A DNA stretch of 64,000 nucleotides from assembly GCA_011364905.1 (NCBI GenBank), contig RDNZ01000001.1, positions 64,001 to 128,000 of the forward strand, in the 5' to 3' direction. A program made the position numbers and the translations under genes. Positions 35,090 through 40,138 of the stretch are shown in pieces; within the stretch, counting starts at the first letter, position 1; each line of letters opens with the position of its first letter. Below the pieces are notes generated by a model. That model was not told where the DNA came from and ran no database searches. It worked only from the letters and a program-made list of their open reading frames with translations. This DNA comes from Candidatus Thorarchaeota archaeon (GTDB taxonomy: Archaea > Asgardarchaeota > Thorarchaeia > Thorarchaeales > Thorarchaeaceae).

Positions 35090-35677
35090 CTAAGGTTTCT
35101 TCATCATTCGTGTGCCATCGCGAGAAATAAGCTCGTCACCCTCGCCTTCCGCCAAATTCTCATATCTGGCCATGACGAATATCAGATCGGAAAGGCGGTT
35201 GATGTATTTGATGAGATCTTGGTTTACTGGCTGTATCTTGGCAAATTGAACAATTCTTCGCTCTGCCCTTCTACAGACTGTTCGAGCAACATGAAGAAAA
35301 GCTGCGCCCTTGGTACCTCCGGGGACAACAAAATTGGTGAGTAGCGGGAGTTCCTCTGATAGTTCATCAGCAACCTGCTCCAAGAAGTCAACATCTTGTT
35401 TGGTAATCCTCTTGAGATCCTTTATTGGGTCGTCAGCATCTAGCGAGTCTAGATTTGTAGCCAATTCAGCATTCACGAGGAAAAGTTTCTGCTGAATTCC
35501 GTGAATATAGTCCGCAATTCGTTTTGATGCATGGACCTTTGCAACGCCTAAGGTTGTACCTAGTTCATCTACGGTCCCATACGCTTCAACACGAGAGTCT
35601 GTCTTATCGATTCGCTCGCCAGATAAAAGACCAGTTTCTCCTTTGTCTCCAGCTCTAGTGTAGATACGTTTTGACAA
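35090..35677 (-). CDS. pduO: Cob(I)alamin adenosyltransferase, PduO type
   Basis: IYTRAGDKGET, RVEAYGTVDEL, FVVPGG, ARTVCRRAER, YINRLSDLIF. Start probably TTG at 35677. Confidence 0.92.
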   Translation of the reverse strand: MSKRIYTRAGDKGETGLLSGERIDKTDSRVEAYGTVDELGTTLGVAKVHASKRIADYIHGIQQKLFLVNAELATNLDSLDADDPIKDLKRITKQDVDFLEQVADELSEELPLLTNFVVPGGTKGAAFLHVARTVCRRAERRIVQFAKIQPVNQDLIKYINRLSDLIFVMARYENLAEGEGDELISRDGTRMMKKP

Positions 35678-35808
35678 GATACCACCAAGTTGAGGTTTAT
35701 CCAAGTCCAAATGATTAGCTTTTCTCTCTATACCTAATATGGAATAAACTGACTTACATGCCCCTTAAATACAACCTCAGTACAAAGTGTTGATTTATCG
35801 GGGTTATT

Positions 35809-37656
35809 GTGATGTCGTCAAAAAGGAAGAAACTTGAACTTGAAGAACTATTAGCTCTGCCTACCAGTTTTTGGGGAGCTTTAGGCAAGATCAGTGACAA
35901 GATTGTCTATATTTCAAATAAGACCGGACCTCCGGAGCTGCATCTGCTTGACTTGGACACTATGAAGTTCTCTCAATTGACTGATGGTAATTTTCCCAAG
36001 AGCCCTGGGGGCTATCATAAATGGGCTCCAGATGACTCTTATGTACTCTTCACTAAAGATCCAATTGAGGGTAATGAAAAATACGATATTTACAGCATCT
36101 CAATTCAAGATGGGAAAATCACTCAACTAACAAATACCCCTGAAAATCGGGATGATTTAGGCGAGGTGAGCCATGATGGTAAATGGATTGTTTTCTCCTC
36201 CGACCGTTCAGGAGGTGTTGCCCAGCTATTCAGAATGAAGGTGGATGGCACTGATGTCATTCAATTGACTGATCATACCCGGCCAGTCGCTTCCTGGTAT
36301 GAATTTTGGATATCGCCGGATGATGAATGGATTGCCTATACAGCAAATGATAGTGAGAATTTAAGGAATCTAGATGTCTGGATTGTGAGAAGTGATGGAT
36401 CTGAGAAGAGGAAAATCTACTCAGCAAAGGATGGCTCACAGGAAATTGCTGCAGATTGGTCAAAAAATGGTTCAAAGCTACTGATTATGTCGGATCATTC
36501 AGGAATTGAACGTGCGGGAATATGCGACTTAGAATCTGGTGAAGTAAAATGGTTTGGCAAAGGAATCAATCCAGAAACCCCGATTGTATTCACACCAAAT
36601 TCTGAACAAATACTAGTTCAACGCGATGCCGATGCAGAAATGAAGCTCATTCTATATGATGTGAAATCAGGAAACGAGATCCCACTTAAGATTCCACCAG
36701 GCTCCGCAGGAGGTCGACATTTTACAGTCGATGGATCTCGGCTTTTAATTGGCCATCAGGATTCCATTCATCGGATGCGCTACTTACTTTATGACATAAC
36801 TAACCATAATTACAAAGAGATTATTCCTGCTGATTATGGACGTTACACACCCGATGACTTTCATCCGGATGAATATATTAGCTACAAATCCAATGGTGTG
36901 ACAATTCATGCTATTCTCTACAAACCAAAGGAATTGCTTCCCAACAAAAAACTACCAGCAATTATAATGCCTCATGGAGGTCCTACGGGGCATTATCCAA
37001 GATTGTTTGATGTATATTCTCAAGTCTTAGTAGACAGGGGGTATGTTATCTTGCTGCCCAATGTTAGAGGATCAACCGGATATGGTGTCGAGTTTAGAGA
37101 TGCTTGTCTAAACGACTGGGGAGGAAAAGACTTGGATGACATTGAAGCAGGTGTAAAGTATCTAAGAAGTCTCAAATATGTCGATCACACGCGAATAGGG
37201 ATAACTGGTGGGAGTTATGGAGGGTATATGACCTTCATGGCTGTAACAAAGAAACCTGACCTCTGGAAGGCAGCATCTGCATATATGGGAATTACTTCTT
37301 TGAAACACCTCTATGATAAGTGCCTTGAAACATATCCTGCGCTCTCGTATTATCTTGAGGAGCAAATGGGAAAACCTGATTCAAAAGAAACACTGGATTT
37401 GTGGGAGGATCGTAGTGCAATCAATTTCGTTGAGAAGATGACAACGAAACTGCAAATCATTCATGGAGAGAATGATCCGAGATGTCCACTTGAGCAAGCT
37501 GAGATGTTTAAGGACAGGTTATTGGAGTTGGGCAAGAAGGAAGTTAAAGACTTCGAGTACATTGTTCTTTCTGACGAAGGTCACGGCTCATTTGACACTG
37601 CCCAACGAATAAGAATGTTCAAGCATCTCGTTGATTATTTCTACAGAGAACTGTAA
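35809..37656 (+). CDS. S9 family peptidase (acylaminoacyl-peptidase-like) with TolB/PD40-like propeller
   Basis: HGGP, NVRGSTGYG, GGSYGG, HGENDPRC, DEGHG. Confidence 0.93.
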   Translation: MMSSKRKKLELEELLALPTSFWGALGKISDKIVYISNKTGPPELHLLDLDTMKFSQLTDGNFPKSPGGYHKWAPDDSYVLFTKDPIEGNEKYDIYSISIQDGKITQLTNTPENRDDLGEVSHDGKWIVFSSDRSGGVAQLFRMKVDGTDVIQLTDHTRPVASWYEFWISPDDEWIAYTANDSENLRNLDVWIVRSDGSEKRKIYSAKDGSQEIAADWSKNGSKLLIMSDHSGIERAGICDLESGEVKWFGKGINPETPIVFTPNSEQILVQRDADAEMKLILYDVKSGNEIPLKIPPGSAGGRHFTVDGSRLLIGHQDSIHRMRYLLYDITNHNYKEIIPADYGRYTPDDFHPDEYISYKSNGVTIHAILYKPKELLPNKKLPAIIMPHGGPTGHYPRLFDVYSQVLVDRGYVILLPNVRGSTGYGVEFRDACLNDWGGKDLDDIEAGVKYLRSLKYVDHTRIGITGGSYGGYMTFMAVTKKPDLWKAASAYMGITSLKHLYDKCLETYPALSYYLEEQMGKPDSKETLDLWEDRSAINFVEKMTTKLQIIHGENDPRCPLEQAEMFKDRLLELGKKEVKDFEYIVLSDEGHGSFDTAQRIRMFKHLVDYFYREL

Positions 37657-37756: not shown

Positions 37757-40138
37757 ATGGCGATTGAAAAGCATCGTTCAGCTTGCGCGTTGAACTGCCC
37801 CGACATTTGTGCTTATGTAGTCCATGTTGAGGATGGCAAGATTGTAAGACTGGATGGAGACCCCGAGCATCCATATACACTTGGACGATGCTGCCCAAAG
37901 GGCTACGCACACGTTCTCAGAATGTATTATGATGACAGGTTGCTTTATCCTCAAAAGAAGCAGCCTGACGGGTCATTCAAGCGTATATCTTGGTACGAAG
38001 CCTTAGATGAGATCGCACATAAGATGAAGACCGCCAGAGATGACTTTGGACCACAGAGTGTGGGGATATATTCAGGGTCAGGTAATGATGGAATGGCTCC
38101 CCGATACGCAGCGAGGTTCGCCAATGCATTTGGCTGCAGATTGATACCAGGCATAGTCGAGATTTGTTTTGAGGGAGCATATGAAGGCGCGCGATTCAAT
38201 GTAGGTCCATTCCCTCCACATGAGCTATCAGATTGGGCTAACTCAAAATGCATTGTGATATGGGGAACCAACAAATTCGAATCGAGTATCCACTGCAAAC
38301 GAATCATCCAAGAAGCCATCGATAGTGGTGCGAAATTAATTGTCATTGATCCAAGAAGGACACCCTATGCAAAGGTTGCAGATGTTTATACAACTATAAG
38401 ACCTGGAACTGATGGTGCTTTGGCTTTGGGGATAGCTAATGAAATAATTAGGAGAGACCTCTACGACCATGAGTTCGTTAAAAGACATGTTCATGGTTTT
38501 GAGGAATTCCGAAGCCGCGTATCCGAATATGATACCAGACAGGTGAGTAAAATCACCTGGGTTGAGGAGAGTACAATTCGGGAGATAGCTAGGATATTTG
38601 CTACACATGGACCAGCCCTCATCACAACTGCTCCTGCAGGCATGAATCATTACACTAATGGTACCTGGGCTGCAAGAGCAGTTCATAGTCTCTTGGCAGT
38701 CTGCGGATATCTTGGAGTTTCAGGAGGAGGATTTCAATATCTTTCGTCAGATAACAGTCCCTTTAACGGCGCTGCAGTTGCCTTGCCTGAGCTTCTGGAT
38801 TCTTCGGTGAAACCTGTCGTTCCATCAGGCACATATGTACCAGATTACGTTTTGCGACAGGAGGAAAGCCCGCTTAAGGTGTTTGTAATTCAAGCCGCGA
38901 GTCCGATGACGCAGTGGCCTAACACAAACAAGACAAAGAAGGCATTAGATAAGATACCATTCAAAGTGTGCATTGATCTCGAGATGACTGATACTGCTAG
39001 GCTCTGTGACATTGTTCTTCCAGCGACATTCATTTTCGAGCATCACAACCTTGTACATTCCGAGTTGCATAGAATTGTACAATATGCACCAAAGCTTGTT
39101 GAGCCATTGGGGGAAGCAAAGAGCGAATTGGATATTTGGAGGGGTATCGCTGAGCGAATTGGTATTGGAGATCACTTCCAGCTGAGTGAATTGAATGCGA
39201 TAAGACTAGCCCTTCAGAGTGAGGATTGTCGAGATATAACATTAGAGAAACTAATCGAAAAGCCAGAAGGGATAAGGACACGAAGTGAGGCCATTCCTTT
39301 TTCGGATGGAAAATTCGGAACGCGAACTGGATGGATTCATCTATATTCCTCTGAACTTGAAGAACAAGGATTGGACCCCTTGCCTTTTCATCAGGAACCA
39401 CTGGAAAGTCCAATCTCAACTCCTTGGCTAGTTGAGGAGTATCCACTTATGATGATAACCGGCAGGTTGAGGGAGCGACTTCACTCACAGTATACTACTG
39501 TTGAGATTGGCGGCACTGTAAAGAGCTATGCTCACTGTACGACATGCAAGAAATGTGTTGAAGGATGCCCCGATGAAGCTATCACTTTGACTGAACCCAG
39601 CGTTGATACAATCCAACGGAACGCAGAGTCTGCACCGCAAGAACCTGCAAGACTCAGAAAGAAGCTTGGCGAATTGGTGGGAGAATTAGCTGTACGTGTT
39701 TCTGACGAGCAGCTCCATATTCCGAAGGAAATCACAGGTCTTCTTGTTCCTGTGTGGGACTCCGAAAAATGTATTGGTTGCAGAGAGTGTGCCCTCGATA
39801 TTTGTCCGTACGAGGTAGTGACAGAGCCAATAAGAATACTAACAAGAGAGGATGTTGGTGTACACAGAGCCTTCCTGCGCATGCACCCTGAAACAGCAGA
39901 TACCTTGGGTCTTAGAGAAGGAGATCGTGTTGATGTTGAGTCCAAGCGTGGGACTGTGAAGAGCATGAAACTCGTTTTGACTCCAGATATTGATCCGAGA
40001 GTGGTTTGGTCATCAGACGGGTGGTGGCAGGATGATGGCAATATTAACCTCTTGACCGATGACATGCATACGGCTTTTGGACATACTCCGGGATTCAACT
40101 CAGTCCTTGTCAATGTTAAGAAAGCGCTCCACCAATAA
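37757..40138 (+). CDS. Molybdopterin (DMSO-reductase family) oxidoreductase with inserted 2x[4Fe-4S] ferredoxin
   Basis: CALNCPDIC...C cluster, RLLYP, IDPRRT, RPGTDGAL, DTARLCDIVLPA, CTTCKKCVEGCP and CIGCRECALDICP, MHPETA..LG..GD.V.V.S.RG. No Tat signal. Confidence 0.9.
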   Translation: MAIEKHRSACALNCPDICAYVVHVEDGKIVRLDGDPEHPYTLGRCCPKGYAHVLRMYYDDRLLYPQKKQPDGSFKRISWYEALDEIAHKMKTARDDFGPQSVGIYSGSGNDGMAPRYAARFANAFGCRLIPGIVEICFEGAYEGARFNVGPFPPHELSDWANSKCIVIWGTNKFESSIHCKRIIQEAIDSGAKLIVIDPRRTPYAKVADVYTTIRPGTDGALALGIANEIIRRDLYDHEFVKRHVHGFEEFRSRVSEYDTRQVSKITWVEESTIREIARIFATHGPALITTAPAGMNHYTNGTWAARAVHSLLAVCGYLGVSGGGFQYLSSDNSPFNGAAVALPELLDSSVKPVVPSGTYVPDYVLRQEESPLKVFVIQAASPMTQWPNTNKTKKALDKIPFKVCIDLEMTDTARLCDIVLPATFIFEHHNLVHSELHRIVQYAPKLVEPLGEAKSELDIWRGIAERIGIGDHFQLSELNAIRLALQSEDCRDITLEKLIEKPEGIRTRSEAIPFSDGKFGTRTGWIHLYSSELEEQGLDPLPFHQEPLESPISTPWLVEEYPLMMITGRLRERLHSQYTTVEIGGTVKSYAHCTTCKKCVEGCPDEAITLTEPSVDTIQRNAESAPQEPARLRKKLGELVGELAVRVSDEQLHIPKEITGLLVPVWDSEKCIGCRECALDICPYEVVTEPIRILTREDVGVHRAFLRMHPETADTLGLREGDRVDVESKRGTVKSMKLVLTPDIDPRVVWSSDGWWQDDGNINLLTDDMHTAFGHTPGFNSVLVNVKKALHQ

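Follow-up and report, generated by a model that had tools for sequence, protein, structure and literature searches.

A 64,000-nucleotide stretch of contig RDNZ01000001.1 from a Candidatus Thorarchaeota archaeon (GCA_011364905.1, positions 64,001-128,000; hereafter the window, to which all nucleotide coordinates refer) encodes a molybdenum or tungsten (Mo/W) enzyme with a dicluster ferredoxin inserted inside domain IV of its catalytic chain. By its domain content, the protein belongs to the dimethyl sulfoxide (DMSO) reductase/MopB superfamily of Mo/W-bis-pyranopterin guanosine dinucleotide (bisPGD) enzymes, the actual binding of the cofactor being predicted. Among the relatives compared, the architecture is restricted to one clade, and it is apparently undescribed; it is a variant of a known enzyme type, not a new kind of system. 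With a probability of roughly 0.6, we read the protein as a cytoplasmic single-polypeptide Mo/W oxidoreductase, whose insert would act as a built-in electron relay replacing the Fer4_11 subunit. The main support for such a replacement of the beta subunit comes from the gene neighbourhoods: the four insert-less Asgard relatives examined are accompanied by a beta-subunit gene, whereas no other iron-sulfur (Fe-S) gene stands at 10 of the 11 loci with the insert.

Anatomy, conservation and single origin of the insertion

The N-terminal part of the protein matched the Pfam profiles Molybdop_Fe4S4 (PF04879) at residues 5-57, above cut-off, and Molybdopterin (PF00384) at residues 61-467, with 165 bits. 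Molydop_binding (PF01568) was recognised with 71 bits over profile positions 26-109 only (residues 702-783), the first strand of this domain lying 120 residues upstream, and Fer4_9 matched residues 593-686 with 28.3 bits against a cut-off of 27. The stretch from Ser577 of the HSQ motif to His710 of the MHP motif measures 129-133 aa in 30 insert-bearing proteins, compared with 13-20 aa (median 19) in 120 insert-less relatives. Likewise, the alignment with acetylene hydratase (2e7z) ends at query residue 574 (chain residue 605) and restarts at query residue 708 (chain residue 628), so that 133 residues of the query face 22 of the hydratase. These loop lengths and the alignment gap place the module between strands 1 and 2 of the domain IV barrel. 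An initial annotation, made from the sequence alone, had proposed a dicluster ferredoxin splitting domain IV at 39482-39888; the partial PF01568 match, the Fer4_9 match and the loop-length comparison agree with it, and its coordinates, equal to residues 576-710, are accurate.

The insert proper comprises ~113 aa with two complete four-cysteine motifs and most likely binds two [4Fe-4S] clusters, as judged from these motifs. Motif 1 is canonically spaced, and motif 2 is one residue longer before its last cysteine (CxxCxxCxxxxCP). Both motifs quoted in the annotation were found, at a distance it had put at about 65 aa: translation gives 67 residues between the last cysteine of motif 1 and the first of motif 2, which falls outside the ~20-40 aa typical of bacterial-type 2x[4Fe-4S] ferredoxins. 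The amphipathic helix it had noticed between the motifs is predicted at residues 632-644 and is moderately amphipathic (hydrophobic moment, muH, 0.56). It had further described the enzyme as cytoplasmic, without a Tat signal and without an adjacent partner subunit. Indeed, no Fe-S or membrane-anchor gene adjoins the enzyme gene in the window, and no twin-arginine signal was found at the N-terminus, where the first cluster cysteine is already residue 10; this N-terminus supports a predicted cytoplasmic location.

The structure predicted by AlphaFold2 from a 150-sequence alignment had a mean predicted local distance difference test (pLDDT) score of 90.4 and a predicted template modelling score of 0.87, with the body of the protein above 90; it replaced a poor model (pLDDT 66.8) built from 30 close orthologs. 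The strands and short helices modelled for the insert are compatible with a ferredoxin core plus two linker helices. Acetylene hydratase (2e7z) was the top Foldseek match (template modelling (TM) scores 0.72/0.79, 24% identity), and the matches to acetylene hydratase, FdhF, NapA and DMSO reductase (E 1e-45, TM 0.7-0.8) identified the four-domain MopB fold.

The EICFEG motif around Cys137 is invariant, and the column of this residue holds cysteine in 119 of the 120 insert-less relatives. In alignments to PDB chains, Cys137 falls on Cys141 of acetylene hydratase and on the selenocysteine of the F420-dependent formate dehydrogenase (FDH). The cysteines of the FS0 site are at least 90% conserved across 150 relatives. 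Positions of all these elements are listed in Table 1.

Table 1 Features of the gene for the Mo/W enzyme with an internal ferredoxin, in window coordinates
Feature	Position	Strand	Details and basis
Whole gene, Mo/W-bisPGD enzyme with internal ferredoxin	37757..40138	+	793 aa; open reading frame (ORF) list, Pfam
Domain I, FS0 [4Fe-4S] site Cys10/Cys14/Cys18/Cys46 (Cx3Cx3C...C)	37769..37927	+	PF04879, E 3e-11
Molybdopterin-binding domains II and III	37937..39157	+	PF00384, E 3e-48
Putative metal ligand Cys137 within the EICFEG motif	38165-38167	+	Alignment to solved relatives
Strand 1 of domain IV with the HSQ motif, residues 562-580, ahead of the insertion point	39440..39496	+	Aligns with the domain IV start of insert-less relatives
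Inserted long-linker dicluster ferredoxin module, residues 581-700	39497..39856	+	Missing in 120 relatives; hhalign
Cluster motif 1, CxxCxxCxxxCP, Cys594/597/600/604, CTTCKKCVEGCP	39536..39571	+	Translation
Inter-motif linker, 66 residues, predicted helices 616-625 and 632-644, conserved IP-E-TG hairpin	39572..39769	+	DSSP of the model
Cluster motif 2, CxxCxxCxxxxCP, Cys672/675/678/683, CIGCRECALDICP	39770..39808	+	Translation
Rest of the domain IV beta-barrel, residues 702-783	39860..40105	+	PF01568 profile positions 26-109, E 8e-20; pLDDT >90

The insert is real, conserved and under selection. Our ortholog set consisted of 30 full-length proteins with 68-92% identity to the query; all 30 carry the insert at a length of 113-117 aa, and its eight cysteines, like Cys137 and those of FS0, show no or next to no variation. 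Identity among the orthologs is 73-74% in the cluster motifs, 66-68% in the flanking regions, 81% in the molybdopterin domain and 49% in the linker, whose length is fixed. With residues 480-793 as query, we retrieved 144 protein clusters (58-89% identical, ~790 aa, 96-100% coverage of the queried region); those with a named source came mostly from Thorarchaeota, and a few from Odin-, Loki- or Promethearchaeota. In a search of 400 genomes from the phylum, the insert was matched strongly (E <1e-35, in frames of ~790-860 aa) only within the window's own family (f1), in ~49 of 86 genomes. Contigs from sequencing runs of two other studies (sediment and mangrove) span both junctions without joints or indels, and the base composition is unremarkable. 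An assembly chimera missing from the orthologs, which would have undone the initial annotation, is excluded by the fixed-length, in-frame insert in every ortholog examined and by the independent contigs across the junctions. To the broader alternative, a chimera or a decaying selfish insertion without function, we attach next to no probability: no evidence in its favour was found, and the conserved cysteines and the recurrence of the insert in so many genomes and protein clusters speak against it.

The architecture is rare. When 1.84 billion representative proteins were scanned exhaustively with HMMER, 17,796 relatives came back; among the best 150 of them, the insert was present only in P0092, the query's own cluster at 50% identity, and in two fragments. 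The matches that follow, of 640-720 aa, share 28-38% identity with the query across the alignment and up to 40% where only matched stretches are counted; they align in two stretches that skip the insert. Extra ferredoxin motifs occur in just two of the 148 other listed proteins, P0155 (877 aa) and P0170 (983 aa), members of the same MopB branch in which a whole four-cluster subunit is fused at the C-terminus and the N-terminus, respectively; the electron-transfer subunit has therefore been internalised repeatedly, by different routes. In a tree calculated without the insert columns, the insert-bearing proteins formed one clade with a support of 100 and a long stem of 0.71 changes per column, and a single gain of the insert follows from this. 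A sister-group position of the insert-less Asgard relatives was unsupported, the nearest row being P0123 (support 73-86).

In the literature searched, nothing describes a ferredoxin inserted inside domain IV of a MopB enzyme; this result and the confinement to one clade speak against an architecture that is common and already described, as the initial annotation had allowed it might be. A survey of the superfamily reports seven homologs of the 'AH family' in Asgard metagenome-assembled genomes, along with unnamed Cys-ligated lineages with best matches similar to acetylene hydratase (AH), and is silent on an inserted ferredoxin (PMC10100899).

Long-linker ferredoxins as relatives of the insert

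The insert belongs, on profile evidence, to a small family of long-linker dicluster ferredoxins that is tied elsewhere to Hdr/Mvh modules, an affiliation that the initial annotation had not recognised. The phylum-wide search returned, besides the strong hits, weaker matches (E 1e-6 to 1e-9), in which the two motifs and the linker align at ~30% identity. In these ferredoxins, the starts of the two CxxCxxCxxxC motifs are ~76-79 residues apart, and the insert has a spacing of 78 by this measure. Comparison of the insert with them by hhalign gave a probability of 99.2% and E 1e-19 over 98 columns spanning both motifs and the linker, and the alignment identified the linker as homologous, with a helix and then a VPEG-G-G hairpin. 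In the control comparison with Fer4_11 subunits, 24 columns aligned with E 1e-5; a derivation of the insert from a Fer4_11 subunit was rejected, as only one motif aligns.

Three types of long-linker ferredoxins were found. Those of the first are 318-aa proteins, in which the ferredoxin is fused to an MvhD/FlpD domain and which adjoin HdrA-MvhD fusions; the second type comprises stand-alone ferredoxins of 161-170 aa, also adjoining HdrA-MvhD fusions. Examples of both, L017:1519-2472 (-), L018:1994-2476 (-) and L020:1907-2416 (+), always have such a fusion as neighbour. Proteins of the third type are 746-777 aa long, with a helix-turn-helix region and a C-terminal ferredoxin, and reside in operons with ferredoxin-MvhD (Fd-MvhD) and HdrC-like genes. 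Three of them (L015:2805-5063 (-), L016:1163-3493 (-) and L019:928-3165 (+)) combine a winged-helix match in mid-protein with a large N-terminal part without a Pfam family, and the HdrC-like product in their operons is a Fer4_8 protein.

Like the insert, the stand-alone forms (158-241 aa) and the MvhD fusions (266-318 aa) share the ~78-residue spacing and the homologous linker. They differ from the Mo/W enzyme in residing in Hdr/Mvh clusters and in carrying the helix twice, once ahead of motif 1, where the enzyme lacks it. Since the free-standing forms repeat the element of helix and VPEG-G-G hairpin before motif 1, the module resembles an internal duplication. The family is small even in a collection of 5.8 billion clusters, where ~8 stand-alone clusters and ~12 MvhD fusions were followed by the Thorarchaeota enzyme, and it is apparently restricted to Asgard archaea. 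No solved chain matched across the linker; a PDB profile search with the long-linker ferredoxins yielded generic matches to polyferredoxin and NuoI-type motifs only. A search of the ESM Atlas with the insert gave no usable match, and a word-based search with the insert among proteins of 74-237 aa gave ortholog fragments only.

This affiliation would allow docking to Hdr/Mvh complexes in place of full autonomy of the enzyme. The insert could be a docking or relay adaptor to an HdrA/MvhD bifurcating complex, comparable with FdhAB and MvhD-HdrABC in methanogens, in which case the enzyme would not be autonomous. We consider this unlikely, although the only relatives of the insert are fused to MvhD, stand beside HdrA-MvhD fusions or form the C-terminus of proteins encoded with Fd-MvhD and HdrC-like genes, and the genome itself encodes seven MvhD-domain proteins. 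On the other side, the link to Hdr/Mvh comes solely from fusions and neighbourhoods of paralogous modules, and the 11 loci compared (this window and ten orthologous loci, 18-22 kb each) contain no hdr or mvh gene. A shade more doubtful is the specific version in which the module would retain its Hdr/Mvh docking specificity and the enzyme would be a substrate-specific input or output arm of an Asgard HdrA/MvhD bifurcating complex. The Hdr/Mvh repertoire of the genome is unusually rich: the seven MvhD/FlpD-domain genes are located on G000 contigs C15, C7, C30, C6 and C16, several of them within fusion proteins of 721-1162 aa.

Partner genes, enzyme identity and the proposed relay

In insert-less relatives from other Asgard families (L046, L047, L048 and L050), the gene next downstream overlaps the enzyme gene and codes for 145-168 aa. 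The products in L046 and L047, which were scanned, are four-cluster proteins of the Fer4_11 family (PF13247), and those in L048 and L050 align with them; a Fer4_11 gene is thus translationally coupled to the enzyme gene in all four relatives. At 10 of the 11 insert-bearing loci, the enzyme gene is the sole ORF with a CxxCxxCxxxC motif. This complementary distribution of insert and beta gene is observed directly, as are the insertion, its conservation, its single origin and its family affiliation. In solved alpha-beta complexes of MopB enzymes, domains I and IV make up the side on which the beta subunit docks, and a loop of domain IV would therefore be a plausible site for a ferredoxin module.

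The loci of the insert-less relatives have further features of their own. Those of L046, L047 and L048 hold AMP-binding acyl-CoA synthetases; L046 also has a double rhodanese protein, and L047 an EtfA fused to a ferredoxin domain and a zinc alcohol dehydrogenase. The L047 (1-11000) and L048 (1-13001) loci may represent a redox module linked to organic acids or aldehydes. A single in-frame TGA is present in the insert-less Asgard relatives G226:C4, G152:C391, G292:C74 and G308:C6, which are possible selenocysteine-containing forms.

We propose that a long-linker 2x[4Fe-4S] ferredoxin was inserted into the surface loop between strands 1 and 2 of domain IV in the forebear of a single Thorarchaeota family. 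The insert would bind two [4Fe-4S] clusters and relay electrons between the FS0/Mo-W centre and an external low-potential partner, such as ferredoxin or an Hdr/Mvh-type module. It would thereby stand in for the separate Fer4_11 subunit with its four clusters, so that a single polypeptide would suffice. We infer that the clusters are bound and act as a relay, and likewise how their path is laid out, in which direction electrons run along it and which partner takes part.

What the enzyme does is less easily read. Its best solved relative by sequence is acetylene hydratase (2e7z, E 9e-65), with FDH chains second to fourth among the PDB matches; the best NCBIfam match was TIGR01591 (Fdh-alpha), with 287 bits against a cut-off of 666, and no curated NCBIfam model reached its cut-off. 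The enzyme is best explained as a Cys-ligated member of an uncharacterised, 'acetylene-hydratase-like' branch of the MopB family. As a best guess, the substrate would be a small inorganic or organic electron acceptor, able to take up the electrons of ferredoxin reduced in peptide fermentation.

The name given automatically, 'anaerobic selenocysteine-containing dehydrogenase', and the ranking of TIGR01591 and of the FDH chains would suit a formate dehydrogenase supplying the Wood-Ljungdahl pathway. This function is very improbable and the candidate was rejected: Cys137 is followed by Phe138 and not by the catalytic histidine, and the position of the catalytic Arg333 of FdhF is occupied by Ser330, both replacements being invariant in the orthologs. 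Moreover, the score lies far under the cut-off, and FwdABD is present in the genome for the archaeal pathway.

Acetylene hydratase raises a different possibility, namely a non-redox hydratase or lyase in which the extra clusters would serve the reductive activation of W/Mo and FS0, or would be structural or act as sensors. No solved protein matches better than acetylene hydratase in sequence or in fold, its Cys ligand is kept, and the hydratase is active only when supplied with a strong reductant. In addition, an aspartate of the CPDIC sequence, close to the second FS0 cysteine, resembles Asp13 of the hydratase; in the query (C14-P-D16-I-C18) it is shifted by one position, in a segment over which the HMMER alignment is unreliable. 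Acetylene hydratase proper was rejected as an identity: Trp179 of its substrate ring faces a gap in the alignment, and its Ile142 is replaced by Phe138. Together with the identity of only 24%, these differences make a non-redox role improbable, and it ranks as less likely than the docking to Hdr/Mvh. Redox catalysis in this branch is also suggested by the electron-transfer subunit with four clusters that accompanies the close insert-less relatives.

Several observations weigh against a built-in relay that replaces the beta subunit. The closest solved relative is a non-redox enzyme, and a redox role of the enzyme is thus assumed. The insert and the Fer4_11 subunit that it would replace are not homologous, and motif 2 has the non-canonical spacing CxxCxxCxxxxCP. 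The insert is also the only part of the model with low confidence, with pLDDT of 45-77 and below 50 at residues 672-684. Finally, the genome holds five Fer4_11 genes in addition to the seven MvhD-domain genes, and a partner encoded elsewhere is conceivable. Accordingly, the view of the initial annotation that the enzyme is self-contained stands in part: it gained comparative support from the four insert-less relatives with a Fer4_11 gene and from the 10 of 11 insert loci without another Fe-S ORF, while docking to Hdr/Mvh modules is the less probable alternative.

Within the window, an S9 peptidase gene lies upstream of the enzyme gene; downstream, on the opposite strand, are genes for a DUF998 protein, a histidine kinase and transporters. 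Conserved neighbours in the ten orthologous loci are a convergent DinB-family gene, a CitMHS/ArsB-type transporter, an M29 peptidase, phosphoenolpyruvate carboxykinase, a large GNAT protein and a divergent PduO-type adenosyltransferase, with no redox partner among them. The enzyme gene is flanked by divergent and convergent neighbours in these loci and appears to be monocistronic. The divergent gene for the PduO-type cobalamin adenosyltransferase is found next to the enzyme gene in four of the 11 loci, i.e., in the window (35090-35710, -) and in three of the ten orthologous loci; in this genome, the S9 prolyl-oligopeptidase gene (35809-37656, +) separates the two. As to cofactor supply, MoaC, MoeA and a MobA-like gene were identified in the 81%-complete genome. 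Its only other MopB gene is FwdB, clustered with FwdA and FwdD (L002, G000 contig C27:1-3902).

Comparison with known systems and implications

Like acetylene hydratase of Pelobacter acetylenicus, the enzyme is predicted to be cytoplasmic and single-subunit, with FS0 and a Cys-ligated site for the bis-molybdopterin guanine dinucleotide cofactor. The hydratase, unlike it, is non-redox and has no ferredoxin insert, with a 22-residue loop in place of 133 residues; Trp179 is not kept here, and the two proteins are only 24% identical. With PsrAB, ArrAB, PcrAB and the alpha-beta enzymes of L046, L047, L048 and L050, it shares the catalytic fold and the presumed wiring from FS0 to the outside via further [4Fe-4S] clusters. 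Those enzymes, however, have four clusters on a separate PF13247 polypeptide, whereas here two are predicted inside domain IV and no partner gene is nearby. Extra Fe-S clusters on the catalytic polypeptide are also a feature of the NAD-dependent FDH of the FdsA and YjgC/ForC types (6tga, 7vw6, 8rqz) and of P0155 and P0170, but all of these are terminal fusions and not insertions between the first two strands of the domain IV barrel. In HdrA of the Methanothermococcus HdrABC-MvhAGD complex, a 2x[4Fe-4S] ferredoxin domain is inserted within another domain and extends the electron path. The host fold there is a thioredoxin-reductase-like flavoprotein, and the parallel drawn here is one of general architecture.

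MopB enzymes drive much of the anaerobic chemistry of carbon, nitrogen, sulfur, arsenic and selenium. To our knowledge, their electron wiring has so far been described as separate subunits or terminal fusions. A ferredoxin inside the domain IV barrel represents a third wiring solution, fixed in one Asgard lineage, and a natural experiment on the internalisation of subunit functions. Because this is the only MopB enzyme found besides Fwd and is kept in over half of the genomes of the family, its substrate represents a gap in Asgard metabolic reconstructions. If the insert is indeed a built-in relay, the protein would be a compact, single-gene Mo/W oxidoreductase with three clusters; if it instead docks to Hdr/Mvh modules, a two-subunit Mo/W enzyme would have been made a single polypeptide with a module borrowed from the electron-bifurcation machinery. 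The link to the long-linker ferredoxins associated with Hdr/Mvh may show how Asgard archaea route low-potential electrons.

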